In this document: positions 43,407 to 47,621 of the stretch, in pieces
Numbering within the stretch: position 1 is the first letter of the stretch
Layout: every line of letters begins with the position of its first letter
From: Deferrisomatales bacterium
GTDB taxonomy: Bacteria > Desulfobacterota > Deferrisomatia > Deferrisomatales > JACRMM01
Reading direction: 5' to 3'
Assembly: GCA_033551855.1 (NCBI GenBank)
Contig: JAWSUI010000004.1
Coordinates: 57,243-121,242 of the forward strand
Length of the DNA stretch: 64,000 nt
Position numbers and translations under genes: made by a program
Notes under the pieces: model-generated
The model's database searches: none
Told to the model about the DNA's origin: nothing
Seen by the model: the letters and a program-made list of their open reading frames with translations, nothing else

Positions 43407-44987
43407 ATGGCAGGGGACGGGAAGCGGGTAGGCGTGGCGGAGCTCATGGCCGCCACCGGCGTCCCCTTCGGGACCAGCGGGGCCCGGGGCAGGGTCGCGG
43501 ATATGACCGACCGCGTCTGCTACGCCTACACGGCCGGGTTCCTGCAATACCTGGAGGCGCAGGGGCAGCACCCGCCGGGGGGGCGCGTGGCGTTGGGGGG
43601 GGACCTGCGGCCCAGCACCGGCCGGATCCTGCAGGCCGTGGCGGCCGCCGTGCGCGACCGGGGGGGCGAGCCGGTCCACTGCGGCCGGCTCCCGTCGCCG
43701 GCCCTGGCCCTGTTCGGCATGGAGGAAGGCATCCCCACGGCGATGGTCACGGGAAGCCACATCCCGGACGACCGCAACGGCATCAAGTTTACGCAGGCGG
43801 CCGGCGAGATCCTCAAGGACGACGAGGCGGGCATCCGTGCCCAGAGGGTGTGGCTGCCGGCAGACCGCTTCAGACCCTCGGGGGCACTCCGCGTCGGCAC
43901 CCGAAGGGTCCTCCCGCCCCCGTCGGAGGAGGCATCGGAACGCTACGCGCAGCGCTACCTGCGGGGCTTCCCGCGCGGGTGCCTCGAGGGACTGCGCGTG
44001 GGGGTCTACGAGCACTCCGCCGTCGGCCCGGACCTCCTGTGCCGGGTCCTGGAGGGGCTCGGTGCCGCCGTCGAGAGGCGGGGGCGCAGCGAGCGGTTCG
44101 TCCCGGTGGACACCGAAGCGGTCCGCCCGGAGGACGAGGAGCTCGCCAGACGGTGGGCGGCGGAGGGCCGGGTCGACGCCCTGGTCTCGACGGACGGGGA
44201 CGGCGACCGGCCCCTGGTCGGCGACGAGGCCGGTCGGTGGCTGCGGGGGGACGTGGCGGGTATCCTCGTCGCGCGGTTCCTGGGGGCCGACGCCGTGGCG
44301 GTGCCCGTGAGCGCGAACACCGCCGTGGAGCTCTCGGGGTGGTTCCGGCGCGTGGTGCGTACCCGCATCGGGTCCCCCTACGTGATCGAGGGGATGGCCC
44401 GGGCGCGGCAGGAGGGCTTCGCGACGGTGGTGGGGTACGAGGCGAATGGCGGGTTCCTCACCGCTTCCTCCGTTCGGCGCGCGGGCGTGGCCCTGAGCCC
44501 CCTGCCCACCCGGGACGCCCTCGTCGTCATCCTGTCTCTCCTGGTCCAGGCTGCCCGGGCCGGCGTGCCGGTCTCCGGCCTCGTCCGGGAGCTGCCGGCG
44601 CGGTTTACGGCAAGCGGCCGGGTCGGCGACTTTCCCACGGCCGCGAGCGCCGCCGCCCTGGAGAGGATCGGAGGACGGCCCGAGGGTGAGAGCCGACGGG
44701 CCTTCGCCGAGGCCTTTGCCGAGGCCCTGGGCCGAGAGGCGGGGGAGGTGGCGGCTCTCGACCGGACCGACGGCCTGCGCGCGATCTTCCGCAACGGGGA
44801 GATCCTGCACGTGCGCCCCTCGGGCAACGCCCCGGAGCTCCGGTGCTACGTGGAGGCGGCCTCGGAGGCCCGGGCGCGGGAGCTGCTCCGCGGGTGCCTC
44901 GCGGTCCTGGAGCGCTGGAGAGGGGGTGCGGTGTCCTTCACCCCGCCGCCACGGCCCGGCCGCCGGCCGAGCCCAGGTACTCCGTGA
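43407..44987 (+). CDS. manB: Phosphomannomutase/phosphoglucomutase
   Basis: FGTSGARG, TGSHIP, TDGDGDR, GYEANGG, RPSGNAPE. Confidence 0.92.
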   Translation: MAGDGKRVGVAELMAATGVPFGTSGARGRVADMTDRVCYAYTAGFLQYLEAQGQHPPGGRVALGGDLRPSTGRILQAVAAAVRDRGGEPVHCGRLPSPALALFGMEEGIPTAMVTGSHIPDDRNGIKFTQAAGEILKDDEAGIRAQRVWLPADRFRPSGALRVGTRRVLPPPSEEASERYAQRYLRGFPRGCLEGLRVGVYEHSAVGPDLLCRVLEGLGAAVERRGRSERFVPVDTEAVRPEDEELARRWAAEGRVDALVSTDGDGDRPLVGDEAGRWLRGDVAGILVARFLGADAVAVPVSANTAVELSGWFRRVVRTRIGSPYVIEGMARARQEGFATVVGYEANGGFLTASSVRRAGVALSPLPTRDALVVILSLLVQAARAGVPVSGLVRELPARFTASGRVGDFPTAASAAALERIGGRPEGESRRAFAEAFAEALGREAGEVAALDRTDGLRAIFRNGEILHVRPSGNAPELRCYVEAASEARARELLRGCLAVLERWRGGAVSFTPPPRPGRRPSPGTP

Positions 44988-46269
44988 TCTTCTCGGCGAG
45001 GGTGCGGAAGATCCCGGTGAAGCGATCCCGGTCGGGCTCCAGCAGGGTCACCCGAAACCCCAGCTCCTGGGTGCAGAAGGACGAGAGGGGGACCACGCAG
45101 ATGCCGGCCGACGCCAGCAGGTAGTACACGAACCGCTTGTCGGGGGGCAGGCCGGGGGGGGCCACCAGCCTCTCCACCAGCTCCCGCACCTCGGGGTTGG
45201 CCACCGGCAGGCTCTGGTCCTCCCGGAGCACACCTTCCTCGAACGCCACCGCCATGTAGAAGGCCCCGTTGGTGCGGTTGACCTTGAGGCCCGGCACCTC
45301 CCGCAGAATGCGGTAGGCGATGTTGGAGTGCTCCTCGTACCGCCGCTTGCGCTGCTCCAGATACGCCGGGTACTCGGGGTGGGTCAGGATCGGGGGGATG
45401 GCCTTCTGCGGAAGGGTCGTGGAGCACACCTCCACCATCTTGGAATCCACGATGCTCTGGACGTAGCGCCGGAACACCGGGTCCTTGTCCCCGTTGTACA
45501 CCTCGATCCACCCGCACCGGGCTCCCGGCCAGGGGAGCTCTTTGCTGATCCCCTTCATCGCGATGGCCGGCACGTCCCCGATCAGGTCGGAGAGGGGACG
45601 GGTCTTCCGGCCGTTGTACACGATGTTGTTGTAGATCTCGTCGCAGATGATGAAGAGGTCGTGCTCCCGGGCCAGGGCGATCATCTCGCGCAGGATCTCC
45701 TCGGGGTAGACCGCGCCGGTCGGGTTGTCGGGATTGATGATGAGCAGCCCGGAGATGGAGGGGTTGTACTGGATGGAGAGCCGCAGGTCCTCCAGGTCGG
45801 GGTACCAGTGGTTGCCGGGGTCGAGCAGGTACGAGACGGGGGGCTGCCCCGCGTGGGCTGCCTCGCCGGAGGAGTGCGTGGAGTAGGTGGGCGAGGGGCC
45901 GATCACCCGGGCCTCGCGCCGCAGGAGCCCGTAGACCTTCTGGATGGCGTCGCCCAGACCGTTGAAGAAGATGACGTCCTCCGGCGAGATCTGGATCCCC
46001 CCCCGGGCGTTCGTCCGCTGCGCGAGAAACCGCCGGGTGTCGTGGTCGCCCTTGGTGGGGCAGTAGGCGTAGGAGCAGTCCTGCATGGCCAGGTCGGCCA
46101 CGATCTCCTTCATCCAGAGCGGGATCCTCTCGCCCTTGGCGACGGGGTCGCCGATGTTCTCCAGGTTCACGGAGACGCCGAGCCGCTGGAGGCGTTCGGC
46201 GATCTCGACGATCGCCCGGATCTCGTAGGTCAGCTCCCCCGCCCCGATGTGCACGATATTGTTTCTCAT
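44938..46269 (-). CDS. alaA: PLP-dependent class I/II aminotransferase, AlaA (Glu-pyruvate) type
   Basis: LTYEIR, NIGDP, INPDNPTGAVY, DEIY, GISK...PGARCGW, GAFY. Confidence 0.85.
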   Translation of the reverse strand: MRNNIVHIGAGELTYEIRAIVEIAERLQRLGVSVNLENIGDPVAKGERIPLWMKEIVADLAMQDCSYAYCPTKGDHDTRRFLAQRTNARGGIQISPEDVIFFNGLGDAIQKVYGLLRREARVIGPSPTYSTHSSGEAAHAGQPPVSYLLDPGNHWYPDLEDLRLSIQYNPSISGLLIINPDNPTGAVYPEEILREMIALAREHDLFIICDEIYNNIVYNGRKTRPLSDLIGDVPAIAMKGISKELPWPGARCGWIEVYNGDKDPVFRRYVQSIVDSKMVEVCSTTLPQKAIPPILTHPEYPAYLEQRKRRYEEHSNIAYRILREVPGLKVNRTNGAFYMAVAFEEGVLREDQSLPVANPEVRELVERLVAPPGLPPDKRFVYYLLASAGICVVPLSSFCTQELGFRVTLLEPDRDRFTGIFRTLAEKITEYLGSAGGRAVAAG

Positions 46270-46320
46270 CCCGGTCCTCTCCGCGGGGCGGAATTCTCTG
46301 CCCCAGGTGTGAGCCTCGTA

Positions 46321-46384
46321 CCCGCAAACGGCGAGAGGCCGCGAGCGCTCTGCCCACGGCCTCTTCCTTCGTCCCTTTTGCGGG
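46321..46384 (-). promoter_or_regulatory. Leader stem-loop with alternative pairing to the Ala-leader coding sequence
   Basis: Outer cccgcaaa/tttgcggg and inner agaggccg...cggcctct stems; its loop-side segment is complementary to codons just after the Ala run. Confidence 0.6.
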
Positions 46385-46390
46385 AGGTCT

Positions 46391-46510
46391 TTATCCCCCG
46401 CCCCCGACGAGGCACCGGGCAGCACACGAGCGCTCGGCAGCAGCGGCTGCCGCGCCCGTAGCTCGGGCCGAGCGATCCATCCGGGGGCAAGTGCCAAATA
46501 CACAACCCAT
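46391..46510 (-). CDS. Ala-rich leader peptide upstream of the alanine aminotransferase
   Basis: MGCVFGTCPRMDRSARATGAAAAAAERSCAARCLVGGGG*; RBS GGAGGAG; six consecutive Ala codons GCG GCA GCC GCT GCT GCC. Confidence 0.72.
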   Translation of the reverse strand: MGCVFGTCPRMDRSARATGAAAAAAERSCAARCLVGGGG

Positions 46511-46591
46511 GGGGTCTCCTCCGCGGCGCCTTTCCTACCACGGCGGACGCGCGGAAGTCAACGCGCGCCAGCCAAGCCATGATCCACCGCC

Positions 46592-46762
46592 TGACAGTTG
46601 TCCGGGGCCGGGGAGCCCCTCCGCTTCGCCCCGCAATCCGCGGCAATTCGAAGGGGTGTCCCAGCAGGGCCCGGTGCGCCGGGCTTCACCCGTTTGCGCC
46701 GGACTCGGTGCGTTGGTTGATGCGGTACGGGGCTGCTCTCCGGGGCTCCCGGTCCCCGTCCC
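46592..46762 (-). mobile_element. Repeat family B, full-length MITE-like copy
   Basis: Reverse complement is colinear with 31181-31350. Confidence 0.7.
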
Positions 46763-46818
46763 ACGATGCGGTGGTGCATCTTGGCCTCTGCGATGCGGTG
46801 GGTAAGGTAGCGGCGGCG

Positions 46819-46850
46819 AAAAAGGAAAGGGCGGACCTCCGTGTCCGCCC
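46819..46850 (-). terminator. Intrinsic terminator after the nitroreductase-ending operon
   Basis: Minus strand gggcggac-acggag-gtccgccc followed by tttccttttt. Confidence 0.75.
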
Positions 46851-47045
46851 CGCCCGGCGCGGGAATGGGGATCGTCCGTGTTCCCCTCTGGGGAACCTCC
46901 CGCGAACCTATCCGAGGGCGGCCGGGAGCTGCCCGGTGTCCGATCTCCCATCGGCCGGCCTTGGTGGGATCTTGAGCGGGGGCCCGGCCAGGGGCCCGGC
47001 CGAGGCCTCGGCGGGCACCTCGGCTCTTCCGGGAGACCGGCCGTG

Positions 47046-47621
47046 TTACGGGAGAACGATCTCCTCCAGGCTCCGCTTGGGCACGTGGTGCACGCCCTGG
47101 GGGTCGCGCCAGTAGCGGATGTCGCCGCCCGGGGGCAGGGCCTCCAGGACGACGGTCTCGGCCGGTCTGCCGAGGGCCAGGACCAGCCGGATCTTCAGGT
47201 GGATCGGGATGCCCAGGGCGTTCCGCAACCGCTCCCGCTGCACGTTGCCGATCATGCACCCGCCGAGGCCCCGCTCCACTGCGCCCAGGTAGATCGTCTG
47301 GGCGGCGATGCCGTCGTCGCACCACCAGTCCTTGGCGATCGACTCGTCCACCAGGAGCACGACGTAGGCGCTGGGGCGCTCCCCCGGGACCGGCCCGGGC
47401 CAGTCCGTCAGGTACCCCGCCCACCCCAGGCACGGAAAGATCGCGTCGTTGGTCTGCGGGTCCGTCGAGAGAAAATACTTGAGGGGCTGGCGGTTGGCGG
47501 CCGAGGCGGTGTGCCGCGCCAGGTCCACCAGTTCCAGCAAGACCTCGCGGGGGACCCGGTGGGACTCGTCGAAGCGGCGGTAACTGCGGTTGCGGAGCAC
47601 CAGGTCGCGCAGGCTCTTCAA
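47046..47621 (-). CDS. Nitroreductase family protein
   Basis: NRSYRRF, ASAANRQP, GLGGCMIG, ALG, HHVPKR; TTG start overlapping the previous stop. Confidence 0.9.
   Translation of the reverse strand: MKSLRDLVLRNRSYRRFDESHRVPREVLLELVDLARHTASAANRQPLKYFLSTDPQTNDAIFPCLGWAGYLTDWPGPVPGERPSAYVVLLVDESIAKDWWCDDGIAAQTIYLGAVERGLGGCMIGNVQRERLRNALGIPIHLKIRLVLALGRPAETVVLEALPPGGDIRYWRDPQGVHHVPKRSLEEIVLP

Follow-up and report, generated by a model that had tools for sequence, protein, structure and literature searches.

Upstream of the aminotransferase gene at positions 44938..46269 (minus strand) of the window, the 64,000-nucleotide stretch of DNA that was analysed as a whole, we found a short alanine-rich reading frame followed by two mutually exclusive RNA helices. 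With a probability of roughly 0.7 we regard this arrangement as a trp/his-type ribosome-mediated attenuator, which would read charged tRNA-Ala and control an enzyme of the PRK06855 family, most likely a glutamate:pyruvate transaminase. That a ribosome-read alanine attenuator might lie in front of an alanine-aminotransferase-like gene had been put forward in a first-pass annotation of this DNA, and the proposal is strongly supported by conservation, covariation and geometry. The features of the locus are the following.

46532..46561, minus strand: promoter, read from the sequence, with the -35 box TTGACT (46561-46556), a spacer of 18 nt and the TG-extended -10-like box TAGGAA (46537-46532)
46522-46516, minus strand: leader Shine-Dalgarno sequence GGAGGAG, 5 nt before the ATG, read from the sequence
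46510-46391, minus strand: leader reading frame of 39 codons, 10 of them for Ala
46460..46465, minus strand: conserved Arg16-Ala17 codon pair CGA-GCT, located 12 nt ahead of the hairpin that opens with the Ala run
46453-46436, minus strand: six consecutive Ala codons, A20-A25, in which all four Ala codons are used
46451-46446 with 46441-46436, extendable to 46463-46421, minus strand: region 1, a candidate pause hairpin in the Ala codons, obtained by folding
46421-46406, minus strand: region 2, the 5' strand of the antiterminator, pairing with 46363-46351 (and 46373-46371)
46380..46401, minus strand: small hairpin at the leader stop codon, nested in the antiterminator fold
46384-46321, minus strand: outer stem around the terminator, ending 52 nt before the ATG at 46269
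46334..46364, minus strand: terminator hairpin of regions 3 and 4, core of -23.6 kcal/mol, with 2 T in 8 nt
46276..46282, minus strand: Shine-Dalgarno sequence of the aminotransferase gene, read from the sequence
44938..46269, minus strand: PLP-dependent aminotransferase of 443 aa, NCBIfam NF005334/PRK06855, with an AlaA-like active site

The promoter and ribosome binding site, the 39-residue frame with its six consecutive Ala codons, and the hairpin nested in its outer stem about 50 nt before the gene were all found as the first-pass annotation had drawn them. A pattern of TTGAC plus a TG-extended -10-like box was matched in 62 of the 66 related leaders described below, and Shine-Dalgarno-like sites stand upstream of most of them. 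A strict sigma-70 scan called no promoter at the leader, and the hairpin was likewise not listed as a terminator. We infer that transcription starts just upstream of the leader. Upstream of the promoter lies a GC-rich hairpin with a T-rich tail (46851-46828, minus strand), which probably ends the preceding nitroreductase, thioesterase and exonuclease III genes and isolates the transcription unit. An in-frame GTG at 46503 lengthens the enzyme frame to 521 codons (46503-44938, minus strand) that run across the leader, so that gene callers may hide it. A longer enzyme starting at this GTG is ruled out by Met1-Arg2, which is invariant among the 26 aligned orthologues and fixes the start at the ATG at 46269. 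A frameshift from the leader into the enzyme is ruled out as well: only 4 of the 66 leaders have an enzyme frame that stays open as far back as the Ala run, and the leader-to-enzyme frame offsets are spread 27/17/22 over the three frames.

Taken alone, the Ala run lies within chance expectation. In this genome of 70% GC, 16 of 8687 short frames led by a Shine-Dalgarno sequence contain a run of at least five Ala, and 7 of them a run of at least six; the run by itself is thus not rare, and the question needed to be settled by comparison. Its codon choice is unusual, as had been remarked from the letters alone, since GCA and GCT together account for only ~11% of the Ala codons in the 1628 genes of the genome and yet supply three of the six codons of the run. 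The leader region also folds better than its shuffled versions (z = -3.3, 0 of 200 shuffles). Rfam covariance models run over 46000-47300 gave no family match, with one chance hit of 22 bits against a cut-off of 41 bits, and no NCBIfam family matches the leader peptide.

Orthologues of the enzyme were collected from 14 of the 21 genomes of the order and from 73 of the 401 genomes of the phylum, and named genome records, mostly of Desulfuromonadales and Desulfobulbales, added a further 80 loci. Among the first 95 loci, two of which have no upstream DNA, 70 showed a short reading frame with at least five Ala in ten codons; removal of one duplicate (L033) and of three loci without the terminator motif (L051, L102 and L103) left the set of 66 leaders. 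Their reading frames span 24-48 codons, with 32% Ala and Ala runs of 2-8. All 66 have kept a start codon and an open frame, and the stop codon lies 21-45 nt before the terminator. The peptides diverge freely save for Ala, no other residue being enriched, and the Ala codons are mixed (GCG 229, GCA 203, GCC 147, GCT 86), with GCA making up 31% of them in the leaders versus 7% in the enzyme genes.

The first-pass annotation had proposed to look for Ala-run reading frames upstream of orthologues, and we did so by a fixed rule, a frame of 12-60 codons with at least five Ala in ten that is followed by a U-tailed hairpin within 95 nt. The rule was applied to 144 of the 155 loci, 11 being skipped as duplicates or as too short. 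It matched 80 of the 144 orthologue upstream regions in the sense direction, one of these matches (L126) being false on inspection, against 0 of 144 in antisense and 0 of 15 paralogous aminotransferases, and this conservation excludes chance. The remaining 64 orthologues fail the rule, and the window itself fails its U-tail part. In an enzyme tree of 110 rows, built by a quick search, 70 leaders fall into one well-supported clade of 76 rows, and three of the six members of this clade without a leader are truncated contigs. Only two leaders occur in the other 34 rows. One clade rich in Desulfobulbales has no leader altogether, and leaders reappear in more distant orthologues too. The bacteria that carry such a leader are thus numerous relatives that reduce sulfur and metals. 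Omitted from the tree for its short translation was L037, whose leader is intact and whose aminotransferase frame stops after 96 codons (a sequencing error or a pseudogene).

A DNA pattern made from the leader only gave 59 metagenome loci, 5 of them duplicates. The PRK06855 enzyme comes next in 53 of these, another five end within ~260 nt, and the last is a match by chance. CGA stands in frame, in a short reading frame that ends before the hairpin, at 58 of the 59 loci. The pattern forces some Ala codons, so that only the downstream gene and the boundaries of the reading frame are independent here. No other target gene occurs among the 59 loci, the genome-wide list of Shine-Dalgarno-led short frames holds no second such leader, and the upstream regions of alaS, ald and ilvB of this genome carry no such Ala leader. 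A wider alanine regulon was rejected on these grounds.

The same comparison bears on whether the leader is read by ribosomes at all. GCN repeats are self-complementary and form a conserved hairpin, and the CGAGC motif is conserved at the level of bases, both of which would also fit an RNA-only element, a riboswitch or a protein-binding site, with a GC-rich hairpin that reads as Ala codons only incidentally. We consider such an element highly improbable, because a start, an open frame and a stop at the given distance before the terminator recur in 66 of 66 leaders and the frame in 58 of 59 pattern matches, because many leaders have their Ala run upstream of the hairpin, and because no Rfam family matched.

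Single loci show layouts of their own. In L011, L013 and L014 the first leader ATG lies ~8 nt past the -10-like box with no Shine-Dalgarno site, and these leaders look leaderless, unlike that of the window. In L139, L141 and L143 the leader is succeeded by a tandem of two terminator-like hairpins whose arms are similar. L129 has no Ala-rich reading frame, and its hairpin 88-63 nt upstream of the enzyme start, which is similar to the family terminator, is possibly the remnant of a lost attenuator. L075 and L078, which form a small clade with L039, have neither leader nor terminator and share the near-palindrome GGATACTGTATACA, ~180 nt upstream of the enzyme start in the former and ~50 nt in the latter; it is possible that this is a repressor site replacing attenuation. 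The gap between terminator and enzyme, usually 25-70 nt, reaches 110-330 nt in L013, L014, L043, L046, L067, L081, L082, L088 and L097, and some of these long gaps look like inserted repeats. Finally, L065, from a record titled Pedobacter, has an enzyme and a leader of almost the same type as the Pelobacter record L088 and is probably a mislabelled or mixed assembly.

We now turn to the two helices. The terminator stem covaries as the first-pass annotation had expected of it: in an alignment of 13 loci from the window's order 99.2% of the cells are paired, and 0 of 500 shuffles scored as high. The conserved antiterminator pairing joins 46421-46409, at the 3' end of the leader reading frame, with 46363-46351. 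For this 2:3 helix the expected covariation was not obtained in the same 13-locus alignment, where 179 of 500 column shuffles scored as high, although slid partners pair only 29-49% versus 89% for the helix itself. Against codon shuffles the helix came out better, at the 5% level, in no more than 25 of the 66 leaders (16 of 100 in the window). Among 54 of the 66 leaders, the two variable positions of the helix track the terminator arm with 13 mismatches versus 24.5 when permuted (0 of 5000), a result that overstates the covariation because the anchor was drawn from the same sequences and because kin are not independent. At the first variable position these 54 loci show C-G 19, U-G 17 and U-A 17 times with one mismatch, and at the second A-U 34, G-U 13 and G-C 6 times, again with one mismatch. 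Each variant of the arm arose in at least two separate branches of the enzyme tree, and in the distant leaders L139, L141, L143, L133 and L135 both antiterminator strands have been rewritten with their complementarity kept.

A different switch had originally been suggested for the window, built on a complementarity right after the Ala run. The 9-nt match behind it is real. The CGAGCGCUC helix (46436-46428) is nevertheless rejected as antiterminator, as it would lie under the stalled ribosome, reaches a P of at most 0.01 in full-length folds and is unconserved; from the switch strand named there, only the UGCCC part falls within the conserved strand 46421-46409.

The geometry of the switch was modelled. 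In the window the 2:3 domain, including the stop-codon hairpin, folds with -33.3 kcal/mol. With region 4 absent, the 2:3 helix is predicted to form when the A site is on codons 14-26, mostly with a P of 0.5-0.9, and to be blocked when it is at codons 27-37, in all four footprints that were tried. Codon 25 is the last of the Ala run and lies one codon short of the edge where the helix becomes blocked. A ribosome at the stop codon of the window leader would block the helix only with a 5' footprint of at least 18 nt, while a footprint of 15 nt leaves it at 0.84. At equilibrium a stalled ribosome does not keep the terminator from prevailing in the full leader (P ~0.99 in the window), so that antitermination must be kinetic, with the choice made during transcription, as is accepted for the classical attenuators. 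By a cruder measure, stall and stop did not differ for the window (0.80 vs 0.81), and no more than 45 of the 66 leaders showed a difference in the expected direction. In the naked window leader the 2:3 helix has a P of 0.33; the Ala-codon hairpin does little to sequester region 2, and an untranslated leader may thus partly read through.

We infer from this arrangement that the leader is translated, that it responds to alanine and that control runs in the following direction. RNA polymerase would start just upstream of the leader, and a ribosome would enter the 39-codon reading frame. When alanine is scarce, the ribosome would wait on codon A17 or on A20-A25 and leave region 2 (46421-46406) free to capture region 3 as it emerges; the terminator would be blocked and the gene transcribed. 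When alanine is plentiful, the ribosome would run on over region 2, that is over codons 27-39 and the stop, so that regions 3 and 4 could pair, and transcription would then end ~60 nt before the gene.

The mode of termination deserves separate consideration. The tail behind the window's stem is weak, as the first-pass annotation had already seen: its 2 T in 8 nt are the lowest value among the 66 leaders, with 2-4 in the window's genus. Control by Rho or at translation had been suggested on this ground. For the family as a whole we read the mechanism as intrinsic termination, since the relatives have clear U-tracts: at least five T stand in the 8 nt behind the stem in 60 of the 66 leaders, and Desulfuromusa kysingii (L097) is one relative with a strong tail. 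The short tail of the window is characteristic of the source genome, in which only 13 of 101 strong hairpins behind the 1628 genes are followed by at least five T in 8 nt, with a median of 2; this suggests U-poor termination in the window's lineage.

One could still imagine that the alanine sensing is the same and that its output in this genome is termination by Rho, or that region 2 blocks the enzyme's ribosome binding site in read-through RNA once regions 3 and 4 have paired. Besides the weak tail, this alternative can draw on the presence of rho in the genome, on the cost of opening the start region of the window, which is 19.2 kcal/mol in the terminator state versus 13.2 in the antiterminator state, and on the fold of the whole leader, which pairs region 2 with the Shine-Dalgarno sequence. 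The start-region effect is however not shared by other leaders: the corresponding costs are 9.0 vs 8.9 in L002 and 4.7 vs 7.0 in L003, and the mean difference over 6 weak-tailed leaders, out of 55 examined, is -1.2. Conserved translational control by sequestration of the Shine-Dalgarno sequence was rejected, the effect being seen in the window alone and not in its weak-tailed relatives. Since weak tails are normal in this genome and rare in the leader family, we judge such an output unlikely and keep intrinsic termination as the family mechanism, with Rho or translational help possible in this genome.

The leaders share a second regularity. Of the 66, 58 have a C(G/A)A-GC codon pair in frame, and GCGGC, the 5' arm of the conserved hairpin, follows exactly 12 nt after the first base of the pair. 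This hairpin is more stable than with resampled third bases of the Ala codons in 50 of the 58. The pair encodes Arg-Ala in 55 leaders, each time with the Arg codon CGA (55/55), which supplies 71 of the 1659 Arg codons in the enzyme genes; the other three have CAA (Gln). The Ala codon behind C(G/A)A is never GCC (0/58). Eight leaders lack the pair and retain their Ala clusters. Across the 58 folds, no consistent constant pairing partner for CGAGC was found. That CGA acts as a slow inosine-wobble codon is weakened by a tRNA-Arg with a UCG anticodon in the genome. As to the other tRNAs, tRNA-Ala(UGC) and tRNA-Ile(GAU) were not found in the source assembly, probably due to an unassembled rRNA operon, and two tRNA-Sec calls are present.

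The Arg-Ala pair recalls the RAP/RAG arrest motifs. Its retention in 55 of the 66 leaders could speak for a general translation-stress sensor, an Arg-Ala arrest-peptide leader or a system partly like the mycobacterial whiB7 uORF, for which alanine would be only one of several inputs; the whiB7 uORF responds to many amino acids and antibiotics (PMC10274678). The invariable CGA, the CAA (Gln) substitutes and the leaders without the pair argue for selection on bases or tRNAs and not on the peptide, only Ala is enriched in the leaders, and the target is a single metabolic enzyme. We think a stress sensor of this sort quite unlikely and continue with the alanine attenuator.

Bao et al. 2020 (PMC7282821) describe that stem-loops located 11-12 nt past the first base of the P-site codon inhibit the binding of tRNA to the A site. 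Like the dnaX and HIV frameshift stem-loops treated there, the leader hairpin stands 12 nt after the first base of CGA, at which point an Ala codon would occupy the A site. The leader differs from these in lacking a slippery site and in bearing no constant frame relation to the gene downstream (27/17/22). We tentatively put forward, with more doubt than confidence, that the hairpin at +12 slows the binding of Ala-tRNA and amplifies the alanine pause, which would make the element a dedicated hairpin-assisted attenuator and PRK06855 a further class of alanine transaminase. C(G/A)A-GC(A/G/T) would then park the ribosome with an Ala codon in its A site just as the stem-loop reaches the mRNA entry channel, and a mild drop in one tRNA-Ala isoacceptor could give a long pause even with only 2-3 consecutive Ala codons. 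The hairpin may instead be a pause hairpin for RNA polymerase, the codon pair having some other purpose. If the proposal is true, nature would here employ hairpin-induced A-site inhibition to sense a metabolite, with no frameshift involved. The fixed spacing from codon to hairpin offers an in vivo test of whether entry-channel hairpins tune amino-acid sensing.

We next consider the enzyme, which the first-pass annotation had called AlaA-type. It is AlaA-like, but belongs to the separate equivalog family NF005334/PRK06855, whose curated cut-off it passes with 730.8 bits against 443 over residues 1-434. In our literature search no paper naming the PRK06855 family, and hence no characterised member, was found. 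By sequence and by fold the nearest solved structures are those of E. coli AlaA (4CVQ) and Pyrococcus AlaAT (1XI9): a sequence search gave 165 bits for AlaA, 154 for Pyrococcus AlaAT and 92 for tyrosine aminotransferase, a profile search 181, 174 and 112 bits, and in Foldseek AlaA and Pyrococcus AlaAT take ranks 1-5 with 25-28% identity (query model with a mean pLDDT of 73). The structure alignment puts the identity to AlaA at 25%.

The AlaA structure paper (PMC4094517) lists Tyr15, Ile17, Arg18, Ile40, Gly41, Tyr129, Asn179, Asp207, Tyr210, Leu276 and Arg378 as active-site residues. Their counterparts Y15, I17, R18, I39, G40, Y129, N182, D210 and Y213 are invariant in the 26 orthologues, and so is K243, which aligns with AlaA Lys240 (this lysine was read from the alignment). 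Leu276 aligns with an invariant Val281, and Arg378 falls outside the aligned stretch, the invariant Arg406 being its likely counterpart by position only. The Y-x-I-R plug occurs in 109 of 110 proteins of the PRK06855 family and is absent from five other aminotransferases of the genome. Thus, the enzyme has in common with AlaA and P. furiosus AlaAT the fold, the plug Tyr15/Ile17/Arg18 and the PLP-binding residues, and differs from them in its low identity, its own NCBIfam family, the change of Leu276 to Val and an activity that is predicted, namely, most likely, the alanine-forming transamination between glutamate and pyruvate.

Alternatively, the leader could sense alanine as a proxy for the nitrogen or pyruvate status while the enzyme acts on another pair of substrates. 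The low identity to AlaA and the lack of a characterised family member leave room for this, the archaeal AlaAT profile PRK08363 favours two paralogues of the genome (241 and 232 bits) over our enzyme (193 bits), and the genome also encodes an alanine dehydrogenase (ald). AlaA and AlaAT are however far ahead of tyrosine aminotransferase in the profile and structure searches, and the specificity plug is conserved. Classical attenuators, moreover, respond to the end product made by the enzyme under their control. Another substrate pair seems very unlikely to us for these reasons, and with the preferred reading of an alanine-forming enzyme the leader itself predicts a function for PRK06855.

In summary, the conserved regulatory element is real, and the class of mechanism to which we assign it is itself decades old. 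The leaders trpL, hisL, leuL, thrL, ilvL and pheL of E. coli and Salmonella are the classical leader-peptide transcription attenuators. With such trp/his-type leaders our element has in common a short reading frame in which codons for one amino acid are clustered, an antiterminator over the 3' part of this frame, an exclusive terminator, in most of the leaders with a U-tract, and a gene behind it that is probably biosynthetic. The frame has its own start, the Ala cluster is free at synonymous sites and the two pairings are exclusive, with the stall geometry taken from the model. Our element departs from the trp/his-type leaders in several ways: it would read alanine and act on just one aminotransferase, its hairpin in the amino-acid codons barely ties up region 2, a C(G/A)A-GC pair stands at a fixed distance of 12 nt before this hairpin, and there is no sequence relation to the Rfam leaders.

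To our knowledge, textbooks do not list alanine among the amino acids that leader peptides sense directly on their own biosynthetic genes. Lopatovskaya, Seliverstov and Lyubetsky reportedly predicted in 2010 an alanine-dependent leader-peptide attenuator of alaS in bacteria; the target there is a different one, and alaS of the present genome has no such leader. In the literature search, with most subscription journals and supplementary attenuator lists outside its scope, we found no Ala leader in front of PRK06855, and the main text of a genome-wide attenuator survey mentions neither alanine nor aminotransferases (PMC2965389).

The closest tested precedent is the mycobacterial whiB7 uORF or "Ala leader" of Poulton et al. 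(PMC10274678), which is Ala-rich and acts by stalling and antitermination at an intrinsic terminator. On alanine starvation whiB7 raises the alanine aminotransferase AspC, indirectly via a transcription factor. An Ala-rich uORF, stalling, antitermination and, as the net result, more alanine aminotransferase under alanine starvation are what we propose here as well. The whiB7 uORF is longer and responds to several signals, whereas the leader described here stands directly on the enzyme gene, has 24-48 codons and is enriched in Ala only. The element would thus be a direct and compact alanine case next to whiB7, the sole tested one that we found, which works via its transcription factor. Its natural variants across Desulfobacterota number well over a hundred, and it is short enough for reporters in E. 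coli.
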